A stretch of DNA of 34,565 bases from a virus (taxonomy: Duplodnaviria; Heunggongvirae; Uroviricota; Caudoviricetes): IMG/VR virus record IMGVR_UViG_2537562189_000007; one strand, written 5' to 3'. This document shows positions 25,018 through 29,435 of the stretch, piece after piece. The translations under genes and the position numbers were made by a program. The notes under the pieces are model-generated. The model did no database searches. It had not been told where the DNA came from and saw only the letters and a list, made by a program, of their open reading frames with translations. Position 1 is the stretch's first letter; every line of letters begins with the position of its first letter.

Positions 25018-25734
25018 TCACCGCTGCTGTTCTCTGGTGGCGGTAATATCCCGGAGAATATCCCGGCACTTGTTCAGCTCCCGCAGCGCGGCGCAGACTC
25101 GCTCCCACTTCTGAACCTGACCTTTTGCCCGGCGCAGCTCGCGGTTAGCCACATGCAGCGATGGTAGAATCAGGTCATCTGCTTTCGTTTCGGTGACCGA
25201 TGGCTGTAACTTCACAATGTCTTCCACGATTTCTGTTTTCATTTCTTCCTGTGTCGTCGTTTCCTGGACTGGTAACGCAACACCTGCTGGCTGAGGAAAG
25301 GCTTTACCATCGGTTTCCGCTACGGATGCAGCTTCCGGCTCTGCCGGTAAATCAGCGCCCGGTATGCAGTAACGAAATTTACCGCCCTGATTTACGCGAA
25401 TCAGACGCCCTTTGCTGATTGCCATGGCCAGCGATGAATTCGCCCGGCGGGAGGTAATCCCGAACATAAGTGCCAGCTCATCCGCCGTTTGTGGGCCATG
25501 TTGTTCAATCGCCTCAGTCAGCATTTGCGCTGTCACTTTCGGTACCGGTGACACTGGTTCACTTTCACCTGCCTGAGTCAGCCACCACATCGACCCCTTG
25601 TTATCCGCTTCACCACGGCGCTTCAGTTTCCACAGTTCGTTGACCGCATCTTCACGGCTGATTCCAAGGCGGGCCGCCACTACCTGTGAAGAGGCTCTTT
25701 TCAGTGCTTTCAGTGCGTCAAATACGGTTTCCAT
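25018..25734 (-). CDS. Hypothetical phage protein with N-terminal winged-helix-like region
   Basis: ATG 25734 preceded by GGAGGAAA ([31 protein letters not shown]...); C-terminal coiled coil. Confidence 0.45.
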
Positions 25735-25767
25735 TAAAATTTCCTCCGACAAAATCGTTTCCCAGAT

Positions 25768-26430
25768 TCAAATAAAACCAGCAGCCTTCCGGCGTTCGTA
25801 TTCCTGTTTCAGCCGTTCAATTGGCGTTGGCCCTTGCGGGTGTTTCGCCCCTTCCAGTTGTCGTCGCACTGGCGGAACACTCATCCCGTTACCAACATGC
25901 TTTGCCCATTTCGTCAGTTGCCGTTCCGCAAGTCGTTTTAACTCACCCTGCGTCATCTGGCGCTCAATCCCTCTGGTACGCATTTCGAGGCAGATGTGGT
26001 ACAGCACAGGCTGTGGCCACGGGTATTTATCACTCCCGTCGTATCGCCAGGATTCATTGCGCCAGCGCCGGTACTCTTCCATCACGGCATCCACCGTAAG
26101 ACCAAATGGATTTGCCCCACTCTCCGAAATCAGTGCAACAAACTCAGCCAGGTCCGGGGGCCACGTTTCACCCGCCCGGCAGCGGTCCATGCACTGACGG
26201 CAGACCAGACGGATTTGCTGTTCAGTCATCGCACCAATCTGGGCAATCCAGAGCTTCGAAGGTGCGGCCCCGTTCTTCTGAGTCCAGCGGTTCGAATACA
26301 CCTCCCCCATAAGCTCCCACAGCTTCCAGGCCGTTTCCGTTGCTGATAAATCCGTTGTCACGTTCCCACTGTTCGCGTGCTGCCCGGATTTCCTGAACTG
26401 CCCGTGATGCCGTGCCACCTGATGCTGCAT
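25768..26430 (-). CDS. Replication protein P-like (helicase loader)
   Basis: 220-aa ORF downstream of the O-like gene with lambda P-like segments (YPWPQPVLYHICLEMRTRGIERQMTQGELKRLAERQ); start uncertain because the first ~70 codons overlap the O-like gene. Confidence 0.55.
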   Translation of the reverse strand: MQHQVARHHGQFRKSGQHANSGNVTTDLSATETAWKLWELMGEVYSNRWTQKNGAAPSKLWIAQIGAMTEQQIRLVCRQCMDRCRAGETWPPDLAEFVALISESGANPFGLTVDAVMEEYRRWRNESWRYDGSDKYPWPQPVLYHICLEMRTRGIERQMTQGELKRLAERQLTKWAKHVGNGMSVPPVRRQLEGAKHPQGPTPIERLKQEYERRKAAGFI

Positions 26431-27259
26431 GGCTTACCCCCTTGCTGACTGGTTTTACCTGTGCCCAGACGTGCTGCACGTGACGGGCAAATTTCTGCTC
26501 CCACTGAACCTGCGTGAAAACCTTCCCCTCTGCCATCCAGTAATCCCGGAATGCGGCAAGCTCAGCAGGTGTAAATTCCGGCTCAGGCAGAGCCATACCC
26601 CACACTGCTGCCCGTTGTCGAAAATCCGGCGACGGCTGCCAGACAGTAGTCATCGAAAATTTCCCGATGGGTTCGCTCAGGCCGTCCAGGTATTCAGGTT
26701 CGGCTGTCTGCAACGGCGCACCATTCGACTCACTGGTCGGAATACTCTCGCGCGCGTTATGTGTGGGGTTTAATTCTGTATCTGTATCTTTATCTGTCGT
26801 GACTTGTCGTGACAGATGCGTGACACGTCGTGACTCATCGTGACAATCAGCATTATGTTTCCGCAGCTTTTCCCGCTCCCGCTGCGCTCTCTTACGCTCT
26901 GCCGGGGATTTTGCCGTTTGCGAAACGTTACCATTGTCCTCTTTCAGCACCTGACGTTTTTCCCATCCGGAAATAAGGTCACCATCCAGAACCCGCCCCT
27001 GCATTGCATGCAAAATTGAATCAATTACGTCTTCCGTCACATCAAGCGCACTTGCTAAATCTTCCGTCGTGACATCAATGTGACCACGTAGTGACACGCC
27101 GTGACATGTCGTGACATTTCGTGACGCGCTCACCAGAAGGTGGATATACACTGCCATCACTGTTGCGATTGGCTGTCCTGATACCCTGGCAATCGTTCGC
27201 CACTTGGGGTCATTTGGCATGTCATGCCACAATCTGAGCCAGGCATTAGCCATACTCAC
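26222..27259 (-). CDS. Replication initiator (lambda O-like), carrying ori-type iterons
   Basis: 345 aa at the O position after ydaS/ydaT-like genes; two arrays of CGTGAC direct repeats at helical periodicity inside the coding sequence. Confidence 0.55.
   Translation of the reverse strand: MSMANAWLRLWHDMPNDPKWRTIARVSGQPIATVMAVYIHLLVSASRNVTTCHGVSLRGHIDVTTEDLASALDVTEDVIDSILHAMQGRVLDGDLISGWEKRQVLKEDNGNVSQTAKSPAERKRAQREREKLRKHNADCHDESRRVTHLSRQVTTDKDTDTELNPTHNARESIPTSESNGAPLQTAEPEYLDGLSEPIGKFSMTTVWQPSPDFRQRAAVWGMALPEPEFTPAELAAFRDYWMAEGKVFTQVQWEQKFARHVQHVWAQVKPVSKGVSHAASGGTASRAVQEIRAAREQWERDNGFISNGNGLEAVGAYGGGVFEPLDSEERGRTFEALDCPDWCDD
26777..26844. repeat. Iteron array 1 (5 x ~10.4-bp CGTGAC repeats) with adjacent tctgta repeats
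   Basis: CGTGAC ends at 26803, 26813, 26824, 26834, 26844; preceded by tctgtatctgtatctttatctg. Confidence 0.6.
27044..27124. repeat. Iteron array 2 (6 x GTGAC repeats plus one inverted copy)
   Basis: GTGAC ends at 27072, 27083, 27094, 27104, 27114, 27124 (spacing 10-11 bp); inverted CGTCAC at 27044..27049. Confidence 0.6.
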
Positions 27260-27321
27260 CTCTTCTGATACCGAACTTTACCCACGAACTTCCGGAAGAA
27301 ATCCGGTATAAATATTGTTGG

Positions 27322-27747
27322 TCAATGCACAACAACTGCATTACCAGGCTGACCACCACTGTTAGTCAGGGTGCCCCAGGCGATCGCTACAGCGACAAAA
27401 TCATCCACATCTTTCACCAGCCGATCCCGTCGTTCGACGATCTCCCGGTAATATTCAGAACTGTGACTGCGCATACGGGCCACCAGCAAAGGCGGCATCG
27501 CCTTTTCGATCGCCGGTAACAGCGCCTGAATTTTTTCAACAGCATCAGACGTGTCCTTCTCCACCCAGCGGAAAATTTTCTGGGTATTACGAGCCAGGGC
27601 TTCCGGATGGCTGTCGTCGTACAGTTCCGGGAACGTCATCCCCAGCTCGAAATAAATCCGGGCTATTTCAGCTGCGGGAACTTTCTCACCATCAGGATGT
27701 GCCCAGGCATTCATCGCCATGCGGATGTGTTCATGCTTGATTTTCAT
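27322..27747 (-). CDS. ydaT: YdaT-like regulator
   Basis: 141 aa beginning MKIKHEHI and ending VVVH, resembling Rac YdaT as recalled; downstream of ydaS-like gene. Confidence 0.65.
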   Translation of the reverse strand: MKIKHEHIRMAMNAWAHPDGEKVPAAEIARIYFELGMTFPELYDDSHPEALARNTQKIFRWVEKDTSDAVEKIQALLPAIEKAMPPLLVARMRSHSSEYYREIVERRDRLVKDVDDFVAVAIAWGTLTNSGGQPGNAVVVH

Positions 27748-27750
27748 GAA

Positions 27751-28032
27751 TCAACCTCCATCAGCCTTTTTGGTGTTAAGTTCATATTTGTGACGTGAAG
27801 GGGACGTGATTCCAGTGTATTCGGGCCATATAAGCTCCCAGTCATTAGGTCTCAATTCTCGTCTTGTAACATGTCCTCCAGTTTCTGCTTCTATCATCAA
27901 CGCACGAACAGGAGACACAGGTGAAGTTCCAGATGCCATTTGGGACAAGAAAGACGGAGACACACCAAGATTGGTCGCAAATTTTTTTGCTTCTCCAGTT
28001 TTTAATGATTTGATGAATTCCTTTAGCGTCAT
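27751..28032 (-). CDS. ydaS: YdaS-like Cro-type HTH regulator
   Basis: 93 aa with HTH and ...GHVTRRELRPNDWELIWPE; first gene of the rightward operon, divergent from the repressor genes. Confidence 0.65.
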   Translation of the reverse strand: MTLKEFIKSLKTGEAKKFATNLGVSPSFLSQMASGTSPVSPVRALMIEAETGGHVTRRELRPNDWELIWPEYTGITSPSRHKYELNTKKADGG

Positions 28033-28067
28033 AATTTTTATCTCAGCACATTTAGAACAAGTAAAAG

Positions 28068-28095
28068 TTTATACACAACTAAATAAACCAGTCAA
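28068..28095 (-). promoter_or_regulatory. Candidate pR-like promoter for ydaS, overlapped by an inverted-repeat operator
   Basis: Minus strand TTGACT - 16 nt - TATAAA; inverted repeat GTTTAT(N10)ATAAAC at 28067..28088 covers the -10 and spacer. Confidence 0.45.
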
Positions 28096-28099
28096 GTAT

Positions 28100-28128
28100 T
28101 TGCTTATTTTGCGATTACTAAAGATAAT
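28100..28128 (+). promoter_or_regulatory. Candidate pRM-like promoter giving a leaderless repressor mRNA
   Basis: TTGCTT - 17 nt - GATAAT; predicted start ~7 nt downstream coincides with the A of the ATG at 28135; no SD sequence. Confidence 0.4.
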
Positions 28129-28134
28129 GTATGT

Positions 28135-28506
28135 ATGGAAACAAAAGAGATTCGGCGTTTACGCCTCAAAGAGTGGTTCAAAGACAGGACTTTGCCGCCT
28201 AAAGAGAAAAGTTACTTATCTCAGTTAATGAGCGGTAAAGCTACGTTTGGCGAAAAGGCAGCTAGACGTATTGAACAAACATATGGGATGCCTGGGGGAT
28301 ATCTTGATATTGAACCAGAAGACATAACAGAGTCTCCATCATCAAGATCTATAGCATTAACCCCTAACCAATTAGAATTGCTACAAATATTTAGTGCTTT
28401 CCCTGATAATGAGCAGCAGGAGATCATAAAAGAACTAAAAAACAAAAAAGAGGCTATGGAAGATCTTGTCGCACGTTGGTTGGCACGACAAGGTCGCCGA
28501 GCCTGA
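28135..28506 (+). CDS. HTH repressor-like protein, paralog of the downstream PaaR2-like regulator
   Basis: 123 aa; N-terminal HTH; C-terminal 45 aa (LTPNQLELLQIFSAFPDNEQQEIIKELKNKKEAMEDLVARWLA) closely parallels the C-terminus of the next gene. Confidence 0.6.
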   Translation: METKEIRRLRLKEWFKDRTLPPKEKSYLSQLMSGKATFGEKAARRIEQTYGMPGGYLDIEPEDITESPSSRSIALTPNQLELLQIFSAFPDNEQQEIIKELKNKKEAMEDLVARWLARQGRRA

Positions 28507-28525
28507 CGGGATATATAGATATCAG

Positions 28526-28987
28526 ATGGGCGTACTCGAAATTAGTGCTCTTAGAATTAAGATGCTTCTATTGGCAAAAGGCTGGAGCCAAGCAGGACTT
28601 GCGCGCAGAATTGGTATTGCTCAACAATCCGTGCAACGGTGGGTTTGTGGTATCTCAAGCCCTACGGCAGCTAATCTAGATAAACTATCTGAAGTAACGG
28701 GACTTCCTCAGTATTGGTTTTTCTTACCATTAAATGAAGAAAAAAAAGACAGGGCACAGGATATATTAAAAATAACCCCTAATCAAAAGGAACTACTTCA
28801 AACATTTGAGGCATTTCCAGAGGAAGATCAACAGCAAATGCTTAAAGATATGAAGGAGAAAAAAGAAGCAATGGATCGTATAGTTGCAAGGTGGTTAGCA
28901 GCACAACAAAAAGTCAACCAAGCAGAATACCAGCACTTACAAAACGAGGTTCACCATGAACACAGCCCTTTCACCGATGGTTTCTGA
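28526..28987 (+). CDS. paaR2: PaaR2-like HTH transcriptional regulator
   Basis: Internal ATG 28526 (MGVLEISALRIKMLLLAKGWSQAGLARRIGIAQQSVQRWV...); directly precedes the antitoxin-toxin pair, as in three-component paaR-paaA-parE systems. Confidence 0.65.
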   Translation: MGVLEISALRIKMLLLAKGWSQAGLARRIGIAQQSVQRWVCGISSPTAANLDKLSEVTGLPQYWFFLPLNEEKKDRAQDILKITPNQKELLQTFEAFPEEDQQQMLKDMKEKKEAMDRIVARWLAAQQKVNQAEYQHLQNEVHHEHSPFTDGF

Positions 28988-29147
28988 ATTTGAAACTGTC
29001 GAGCAAGAAAACAGTTACAACGAATGGCTGCGTGCGAAAGTAGCAGCGAGCCTTGCAGATCCGCGCCCAGCAATTCCCCATGACGAGGTTGAGCGTAGAA
29101 TGGCAGAACGCTTTGCTAAAATGCGCAAGGAACGGAGTGAGCAGTAA
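28956..29147 (+). CDS. paaA2: PaaA2-like antitoxin
   Basis: 63 aa (MNTALSPMVSEFETVEQENSYNEWLRAKVAASLADPRPAIPHDEVERRMAERFAKMRKERSEQ), GAGG RBS; stop overlaps toxin start (TAAATG). Confidence 0.7.
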   Translation: MNTALSPMVSEFETVEQENSYNEWLRAKVAASLADPRPAIPHDEVERRMAERFAKMRKERSEQ

Positions 29148-29435
29148 ATGTTACCCGTGTTATGGCTTGAAAGCGCAGATACCGACTTGGATGATATAAC
29201 CAGCTATATTGCACGCTTTGACATAGATGCGGCAGAACGTTTATGGAAACGCTTAAGGACTTGCGTTCAGCCATTATCTGAGCATCCGTATTTATACCCG
29301 CCAAGTGACAGAGTGCCAGGTTTGCGTGAAATTGTAGCTCACCCCAATTACATTATTCTGTACCGAGTGACAATTTCAGGCATTGAAATTGTTAACGTAG
29401 TTCACGCCCGCCGACAGTTCCCTGTAACACCTTAA
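29148..29435 (+). CDS. parE2: ParE-family toxin (ParE2-like)
   Basis: 95 aa with ParE/RelE-like features (LPVLWLESADTDLDDITSYIARFD...IVNVVHARR). Confidence 0.75.
   Translation: MLPVLWLESADTDLDDITSYIARFDIDAAERLWKRLRTCVQPLSEHPYLYPPSDRVPGLREIVAHPNYIILYRVTISGIEIVNVVHARRQFPVTP

Follow-up and report, generated by a model that had tools for sequence, protein, structure and literature searches.

Why should a phage replication gene carry two separate clusters of short, evenly spaced DNA repeats inside its own coding sequence? The question is raised by a 34,565-nucleotide (nt) stretch of a Caudoviricetes genome (IMG/VR record IMGVR_UViG_2537562189_000007; the whole stretch is hereafter called the window), in which a predicted replication initiator gene on the minus strand contains two arrays of a motif that reads GTCAC(G) on the coding strand. 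Based on sequence comparison, we propose with moderate confidence that the two arrays, together with an A+T-rich tract adjoining one of them, constitute a two-part replication origin located inside the gene of its own initiator. The features concerned are as follows.

26222..27253, minus strand: replication initiator gene, 343 amino acids (aa) from the ATG at 27253 (RefSeq-style start)
27068..27125, minus strand: proximal array A, six direct copies of GTCAC(G), gene nt 129-186 from the ATG
27036..27040, plus strand: single inverted motif copy (GTCAC on the plus strand), encoding the V-T of 'LDVTE'
26798..26844, minus strand: distal array B, five direct copies of GTCACG, gene nt 410-456
26769..26797, minus strand: A+T-rich tract of AGATAA/AGATAC 6-nt repeats directly after array B, a candidate DNA-unwinding element (DUE)
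26749..26756, no strand assigned: CGCGCGCG, remnant of a G+C-rich inverted repeat, recognised by alignment with relatives

The longest open reading frame (ORF) of the initiator gene starts slightly further upstream, at a GTG at 27259 (26222-27259).

Repeat arrays in the window

An earlier, sequence-only reading of this DNA had reported five CGTGAC repeats at 10-11-bp spacing adjoined by short tctgta repeats (its array 1, our array B), and six GTGAC repeats plus one inverted copy about 220 bp away (its array 2, our array A). Both descriptions hold. On the plus strand, CGTGAC starts at 26798, 26808, 26819, 26829, and 26839 in array B (spacings of 10, 11, 10, and 10 nt), and GTGAC starts at 27069, 27080, 27091, 27101, 27111, and 27121 in array A (11, 11, 10, 10, and 10 nt). 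The arrays share the same orientation and are separated by a measured gap of 224 nt, while the inverted copy sits 33 nt past the last array A repeat, downstream in the direction of the gene. Beside array B, Tandem Repeats Finder detected 3.8 copies of TCTGTA (plus strand) at 26775-26797.

A chance origin of such clusters is excluded by shuffle, Poisson, and Markov statistics. CGTGAC occurs 32 times in the whole window compared with 16.8 +/- 3.8 times in shuffled sequences (0/100 shuffles reach 32), and the Poisson probability is 1e-9 to 4e-11 per array. Up to six GTGAC copies fall on the same strand within 60 nt, whereas 300 order-2 Markov simulations never gave more than three. Arrays A and B are the only clusters of at least three sites across the 34.5-kb window.

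Selection on DNA rather than protein

Since both arrays are translated, they could in principle be a by-product of repetition in the protein, or have arisen by chance or slippage without any function at the DNA level. The peptides SR, VT, and xH are indeed conserved in protein alignments. The sequence-only reading had described the translated repeats as VT/RH dipeptide runs, which is accurate for V-T but too narrow otherwise, as the motif is also read as S-R and as x-H with C, G, or R in the first position. A period of 10 nt is not a multiple of three, such that the motif rotates through all three reading frames, and a 10-11-nt period is impossible for a peptide repeat. The peptides read from the arrays are SRNVTTCHGVSLRGHIDVT (array A) and CHDESRRVTHLSRQVT (array B), and the imprints 'SRNVTRGHxDVT' and 'CHxESRxVT' represent GTCACG read in three frames.

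We scanned one genome per species for relatives, which yielded 39 loci with the N-terminal domain of the initiator. Codon usage was compared among 20 loci aligned in the same register, with pairwise amino-acid identities of 64-99% and G+C contents of 0.34-0.69. The eight motif codons match the modal codon in 99% of cases, compared with 55% for 40 other invariant residues (Mann-Whitney p = 5e-6). The individual codons are listed below.

S44 (motif): TCA in 19/20
V47 (motif): GTC in 20/20
T48 (motif): ACG in 20/20
G50 (motif): GGT in 20/20
H51 (motif): CAC in 20/20
V54 (motif): GTC in 20/20
T55 (motif): ACG in 20/20
V65 (inverted copy): GTG in 18/18

At invariant residues outside the motif, synonymous codons are scrambled, with six codons used for R7 and five for L8, for example. 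That codon freezing is confined to the motif refutes the protein-motif explanation. Furthermore, the loop encoded by array A is predicted to be unstructured and is variable in length, and two loci (L045 and L047) share the protein fold but have neither the peptides nor the arrays. Because the motif occupies three frames and its codons are frozen, a protein repeat is excluded, and we give the by-product explanation as a whole almost no credence. The earlier reading had itself raised a periodicity kept only at the amino-acid level as the outcome that would count against it; we checked this, and codon freezing excludes it. Three-frame rotation, frozen codons, and the joint motif changes described below all identify the arrays as DNA-level iterons, that is, functional DNA elements under selection at the DNA level.

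The arrangement is widespread. In 24 of the 39 loci, GTCAC is found at gene nt 129/139/149/160, with 3-5 further copies near nt 387-430, and an inverted copy is present at gene nt 193 in most loci of this class. Hosts of the GTCAC class include Enterobacteria, Serratia, Pseudomonas, Bordetella, Chromobacterium, and Acidovorax, and the G+C content of the loci ranges from 0.34 (Entomomonas) to 0.69 (Pseudothauera). The basic form has 4+3 copies (array A + array B), to which the lineage of the window has added two array A copies through a 21-nt insertion. All motif-bearing relatives have an array B of 3-5 copies in the corresponding position, with spacers that vary and cores that are kept. The same pattern of differing spacers and retained cores is seen in the 80 closest IMG/VR contigs, where the arrays have 6+5 copies in 59, 6+4 in 11, and 4+5 in 10.

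Motif classes

Three motif classes were observed, and in each class the same word is found in both arrays: GTCACG in 24 loci, GTAACG in four (L012, L033, L035, and L042), and CGAACG(C) in four (L039, L040, L041, and L046). All three words end in ACG. Since both arrays carry the same changed word in each lineage, they share one binding specificity, which differs between lineages. In L035 (Enterobacter hormaechei, GTAACG class), even the inverted copy has switched to GTTAC. The two arrays of L012 even have one and the same translation, TTGNAGVTQG, an identity that suggests gene conversion from one array to the other.

Five of the 39 loci have no clear motif. Degenerate GAAC-like remnants and the AGATAA tract are all that remains in L034, L038, and L043. 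In L045 (a Serratia metagenome-assembled genome) and L047 (Pantoea), which are without both arrays and without the peptide imprints, the N-terminal domain is fused to another C-terminal region of ~300 aa. This region carries a 'YVYYV...GISRNPWAR' motif and DNA repeats of the CTACGTAGTA type, and the fusion probably has a different function.

We also considered whether the repeats could be GTC-type primase recognition sites, a candidate based on the T7-type primase site (PMC12839067). It was ruled out, as the GTAACG and CGAACG classes contain no GTC.

The initiator and the probable binding protein

The initiator consists of a winged-helix N-terminal domain (aa 1-100), a basic helix (aa 117-142), a disordered linker (aa 143-195), and a DnaT-like single-stranded DNA (ssDNA)-binding domain (aa ~195-266) followed by a C-terminal tail. 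An AlphaFold2 model built from 58 homologues gave confident structures for the N-terminal domain (aa 1-100) and the DnaT-like domain, with disorder at aa 143-195. Array A encodes SRNVTTCHGVSLRGHIDVT (aa 46-60), a surface loop within the winged-helix domain. The loop varies in length among relatives and is non-helical in the model, where aa 46-57 have no secondary structure and the blocks covering aa 41-60 are of lower confidence, with a mean predicted local distance difference test score (pLDDT) of 71-74. Array B encodes CHDESRRVTHLSRQVT (aa 137-153), which spans the end of the helix at aa 117-142 and the start of the linker and borders on a segment whose pLDDT is < 50. The A+T-rich tract encodes TDKDTDTELN.

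The only Pfam match of the whole initiator is the DnaT ssDNA-binding domain (aa 201-267, 1.6e-17). The N-terminal 110 aa match no Pfam family at E <= 10, including that of lambda O (Phage_rep_O), and a 58-sequence profile of the N-terminal domain found no sequence match in the PDB. Neither the RepA_N domain (PF06970) nor the Pfam model of the N-terminal replisome-organizer domain of SPP1 G38P matched the initiator, although RefSeq names its close relatives 'phage replisome organizer'. The sequence-only reading had called this an O-like replication gene, which remains apt as regards its position and its P-like neighbour; judged by its N-terminal domain, the protein is not a lambda O homologue. 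That domain is predicted to be a DnaD/RepA_N-like winged helix joined to the DnaT-like domain. The NCBIfam DnaT equivalog model (NF002770) scored 90.6 bits against a cut-off of 201, with the match limited to aa 192-265, which indicates that the initiator is not a full-length DnaT equivalog although the domain itself is clearly DnaT-like.

At 54-57% identity, the DnaT-like domain (window 26222-26700, aa ~195-266) is closer to the ssDNA-binding domain of DnaT, the host restart protein, than is usual between a phage and its host, which suggests that it was captured recently.

The N-terminal domain is the only part common to all 39 loci. Window-type neighbours are far less frequent, with the C-terminal domain found at five loci, a P-like loader at six, a YdaT/CII-like gene at six, and a Cro-like gene at three. 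In Pseudomonas phage P7869 (L049), the next gene encodes a primase/helicase, and the arrays are still present as 4+4 copies plus the inverted copy; the P7869 gene encodes 299 aa, with a C-terminal part unrelated to that of the window. The Pseudomonas aeruginosa protein P0096 is only 160 aa long and ends right after array B and the A+T-rich tract. These two forms suggest that a unit of N-terminal domain plus origin combines with several helicase-recruiting modules. The arrays travel with the N-terminal domain.

It is conceivable, though improbable, that some factor other than the initiator binds the arrays, such as a host protein or a different phage protein, for example a regulator of the CII/YdaT-like or Cro-like type. 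Binding by the N-terminal domain is a prediction, and array A would be inherited with that domain in any case, as it lies within its coding sequence. However, no other phage gene is conserved beside the arrays among the 39 loci. A host factor is also difficult to reconcile with hosts that range from Entomomonas to Pseudothauera, and with related hosts that differ in motif class, such as E. hormaechei L035 (GTAACG) and the Enterobacter proteins P0099/P0104, which carry the GTCAC-type imprint SQNVTRGH. Because only the N-terminal domain is universal and a host factor is unlikely, we infer that the initiator's own winged-helix domain is the most economical candidate for binding the arrays.

A+T-rich tract and inverted repeat beside array B

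The TCTGTA repeats mentioned in the sequence-only reading are in fact the conserved A+T-rich tract of the candidate origin, a role that had been missed, and this identity is what makes array B resemble the lambda origin core. The tract has a G+C content of 0.375, which is the joint lowest 40-nt value in 26000-27600 (tied with 27000-27039 and 27300-27339). The 40 nt past array B are 62-82% A+T in 29 of the 33 tabulated motif-bearing sequences, including those from hosts of 62-69% G+C, compared with 31-58% A+T for the whole genes. AGATAA-type repeats adjoin array B in nearly every locus. On the coding strand the tract is rich in purines, and relatives translate it in different frames (as DKDK or IREE), which argues for selection on the DNA. 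The A+T-rich dip at 27000-27039 was considered as a DUE for array A and ruled out, as codons there vary freely in relatives.

In relatives, the tract is often followed by a G+C-rich inverted repeat located 45-60 nt past array B, such as CGCGCAC/GTGCGCG or CCCCCC-TGCC-GGGGGG. Perfect stems of at least seven pairs within 100 nt past array B occur in 11/33 loci, compared with 7% of control windows, and the lineages with an inverted repeat include L010, L013, L015, L020, L021, L023, L026, L029, and L030. In the window, the inverted repeat is weak, having been reduced to CGCGCGCG by a 6-nt deletion.

The tract also varies in length. The AGATAA/AGATAC repeat ranges from three to nine copies among near-identical E. 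coli prophages (L001, L002, L050-L129), and two O157-type strains carry +12 and +24 nt in it, with the DK/DT run in the linker changing in length accordingly. The initiator gene is itself a mosaic. For its N-terminal half with both arrays (26775-27259), identity is ~85% with phages Evi and Tritos as well as with many E. coli prophages that differ in their C-terminal half. The C-terminal half (26222-26795) matches the Rac-SA53 YdaU, which has a different N-terminal domain and no GTCAC array; an iteron scan of the Rac-SA53 YdaU gave repeats in two or three scattered copies, but no phased array of this kind. The junction lies inside the 6-nt repeats, at 26775-26795, and the conserved A+T-rich tract may also serve as a recombination linker for module swaps. 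In L008 (E. coli MMC-J-0020, NZ_CM128549.1), an in-frame deletion of 90 nt (gene nt ~407-496 relative to Evi/Tritos) has removed array B and the whole A+T-rich tract, while array A and the reading frame are kept.

These observations could potentially be explained by a reversal of roles, in which array A is the essential origin, and array B with the tract is accessory or merely a linker for joining modules by recombination. The junction between an Evi/Tritos-type N-terminal half and a Rac-type C-terminal half within the 6-nt repeats, the retention of array A only in L008, and the unstable number of 6-nt repeats are all in line with it. Nevertheless, the features that usually mark a melting site, namely an A+T-rich tract and an inverted repeat, adjoin array B rather than array A, and in the published analogues the origin is located in the linker (PMC5703833, PMC7466680). 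We therefore regard reversed roles as improbable.

One two-part origin, or an origin and a regulatory site

In the model that we favour, the N-terminal winged-helix domain would recognise the 6-7-nt word (T/G)GTCACG, and copies spaced one helical turn apart would align initiator molecules on one face of the DNA in both arrays. Array B (26798-26844) and the A+T-rich tract (26769-26797), both within linker-coding DNA, would form the origin core where the duplex opens. We infer that the initiator binds the arrays, with array B and the tract as the melting core and with the DnaT-like domain and the loader acting at this core; the DnaT-like domain would hold the opened strand, and the C-terminal part of the initiator would recruit the P-like loader with the host DnaB. 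Array A and the inverted copy, 224 nt off, would provide a second initiator site that acts with the core through cooperative loading or DNA looping. Transcription from the early promoter would pass through both arrays, as in lambda, and the G+C-rich inverted repeat would belong to the origin in relatives.

The principal competing explanation, which is possible but to us less convincing, is that array B and the A+T-rich tract alone are the origin and that array A is a separate initiator-binding site. Array A could then block transcription of the initiator and loader genes as a feedback control, or titrate or pair the initiator and so limit firing, a role that the incA iterons play in P1. Several features are compatible with a regulatory site. 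The motif is the same in both arrays, array A lies early in the transcription unit for the initiator and the loader, and it has no conserved A+T-rich tract, as the low-G+C dip at 27000-27039 is not conserved at the DNA level. Copy numbers vary among the IMG/VR contigs (four or six in array A, four or five in array B), and L008 keeps array A without array B. On the other hand, lytic replication of lambdoid phages has no obvious need for copy-number limitation, the arrays share an orientation, and ~30 lineages have retained them together regardless of which loader lies downstream. Hardly any motif-bearing lineage lacks one of the two arrays, and such joint retention favours a shared role. Given joint retention irrespective of the downstream module, shared orientation, and little need for copy limitation in a lytic replicon, we lean with middling confidence towards array A as a cooperative part of the same origin, rather than a purely regulatory site.

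A stricter version of the two-part origin appears unlikely but would have wider implications. Here, the origin would be obligately bipartite, with the initiator occupying both arrays, bridging or wrapping the ~230 nt that encode its DNA-binding domain, and opening the A+T-rich tract. If this were the case, array A would at the same time code for the surface loop in the DNA-binding domain, and shifts in specificity (GTCACG, GTAACG, CGAACG) would proceed via concerted conversion of both arrays. Each conversion would also rewrite the loop, which would couple the evolution of site and protein within one stretch of DNA.

A number of observations weigh against a two-part origin bound by its own initiator. 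Array A lies inside the coding sequence of the N-terminal domain, such that their co-inheritance is trivial and no proof of binding, and binding or replication experiments for this domain family were not found in the searchable literature. The N-terminal domains of the three motif classes are very similar proteins, and a by-eye comparison of their translated sequences gave no clear candidate for specificity-determining residues. Since conserved protein length dictates how far apart the arrays lie (229 nt in most loci), their distance is uninformative on helical phasing. Only two matches to the DnaA box TTWTNCACA occur in the window, a number no greater than chance, and neither is near the arrays. 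The L008 deletion likewise counts against the proposal, yet it shows only that arrays A and B can be separated, and it may represent a natural deletion of the origin core in a resident prophage. The sequence-only reading had offered a bipartite origin or one origin with a separate regulatory site as alternatives; these two, and with them a positive and a purely regulatory role for array A, are not separable by computation.

Comparison with known origins

Phased direct repeats under selection at the DNA level, lineage-wise motif change, and an adjacent A+T-rich tract are general features of iteron origins, and all are present here. The principle of iterons and a DUE inside an initiator gene is already known, with lambda, SPP1, and pSK41 as published examples of this layout (PMC7466680, PMC5737612, PMC5703833). 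In lambda, iterons and an A+T-rich region lie inside the initiator gene (PMC7466680). The candidate origin resembles that of lambda in its location inside the initiator gene, between the DNA-binding N-terminal domain and the loader-binding C-terminal part; in the order of an iteron array (array B here) followed by an A+T-rich tract in linker-coding DNA; and in early rightward-type transcription through the origin. A P-type loader gene directly downstream is a further likeness, although true of only 6/39 relatives. In lambda, a palindrome follows the A+T-rich region, to which the G+C-rich inverted repeat in relatives of the window can be likened. The differences are nevertheless considerable. 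There is no sequence homology to the N-terminal domain of O, and the C-terminal part here has a DnaT-like ssDNA-binding domain. The lambda iterons are ~19 bp long and internally symmetric, with four copies (six in Shiga toxin phages) in a single array, whereas the window has direct words of 6-7 nt every 10-11 nt and a second array 224 nt upstream, inside the sequence coding for the DNA-binding domain.

The RepA_N initiator of the Staphylococcus plasmid pSK41 provides another parallel, as its DnaD-like winged-helix N-terminal domain binds 'Rep boxes' located centrally in its own gene (PMC5703833). The Rep-box DNA encodes a dispensable linker, and the C-terminal domain is a host- or partner-specific module (PMC5703833). 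The repeats of array B similarly lie in the central linker-coding part, and L008 carries a natural in-frame deletion of the linker array that keeps the ORF. Unlike pSK41, however, the initiator here has no RepA_N Pfam match, comes from a phage of Gram-negative bacteria with a P-like or other loader, and has two arrays instead of one; no antisense-RNA copy control is evident.

In Bacillus phage SPP1, G38P binds boxes and an adjacent A+T-rich DUE in its own gene (oriL), as well as a separate oriR with similar affinity (PMC5737612). The likeness extends to the embedded boxes with an A+T-rich tract, to the presence of a second array, and to the RefSeq name given to relatives of the window initiator. 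The second site in SPP1 is distant in the genome, whereas here it is 224 nt away in the same gene.

Origins in which one initiator recognises short repeats in two clusters also include that of the satellite phage P4, with ori and crr (the latter needed in cis), and P1, with incC and incA (the latter limiting copy number). In the origins of Staphylococcus aureus pathogenicity islands (SaPIs), repeat clusters flank an A+T-rich region. Initiator families, distances, and repeat lengths in P4, P1, and SaPIs all differ from those of the window, and in these systems neither cluster is known to lie within DNA that codes for the DNA-binding domain of the initiator itself. With E. coli DnaT, the window protein shares only the ssDNA-binding domain, being a predicted phage initiator and not a restart primosome factor.

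Relative to the literature searched, the new elements are the predicted origin of this initiator family, the second conserved array in the sequence coding for the DNA-binding domain, and the clear dual-coding signature and motif classes. A description of this origin was not found in the searchable literature, which mostly does not cover subscription journals, so that its absence is weak evidence.

Distribution and potential significance

Among 5,426 complete genomes of E. coli, roughly 2,000-2,500 contain DNA for this type of initiator, and O157:H7 is one of the carriers. Relatives are encoded by at least 583 IMG/VR viral contigs, and also by isolated phages of Pseudomonas, Aeromonas, and E. 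coli. A defined origin would make prophage replication, and incompatibility among co-resident lambdoid prophages of pathogenic E. coli, amenable to testing. The locus is a clean case of dual coding, in that a candidate protein-binding array sets the residues of both the linker and a loop of the DNA-binding domain, overriding codon usage even in hosts of 69% or 34% G+C. The three motif classes are natural specificity variants that could serve swap experiments and perhaps the design of orthogonal replicons.

Genomic setting

The window derives from an E. coli prophage, with 99.7% identity to strain ECA64 and 98% identity to O157:H7. The genes surrounding the initiator correspond to a lambdoid early-right operon.

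28135-28506, plus strand: CI-like
27751-28032, minus strand: Cro/YdaS-like
27322-27747, minus strand: CII/YdaT-like
25768-26229, minus strand: lambda-P-like helicase loader (PF06992 Phage_lambda_P, 1.3e-15; PHROG 109; RefSeq 'replication protein P')
25018-25752, minus strand: DUF1627

The loader gene overlaps the initiator stop by 8 nt and groups with the C-terminal half of the initiator, as it is shared with the Rac-SA53 YdaU/YdaV. A search of 25700-28600 for promoters and terminators gave no more matches than expected from shuffles, and the one promoter-like match inside array B was rejected, being the repeat itself.

The names of the two genes at 27322-28032 (minus strand) are in conflict between databases, with Pfam calling them 'YdaS toxin' and 'YdaT toxin' and PHROGs a transcriptional repressor and a CII-like activator. 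In the immunity region, the consecutive plus-strand ORFs at 28135-28506 and 28466-28987 overlap, are both repressor-like, and resemble each other in a C-terminal motif (FSAFPDNEQQEIIKELKNKKEAMEDLVARWLA and FEAFPEEDQQQMLKDMKEKKEAMDRIVARWLA); an HTH_3 domain is present in the latter ORF. The pair may represent a duplicated immunity repressor. Beside this region, at 28956-29435 (plus strand), we observed a toxin-antitoxin pair that comprises a PaaA2-type antitoxin (PF21217, 1.1e-20) and a ParE toxin (PF05016, 1.2e-16).

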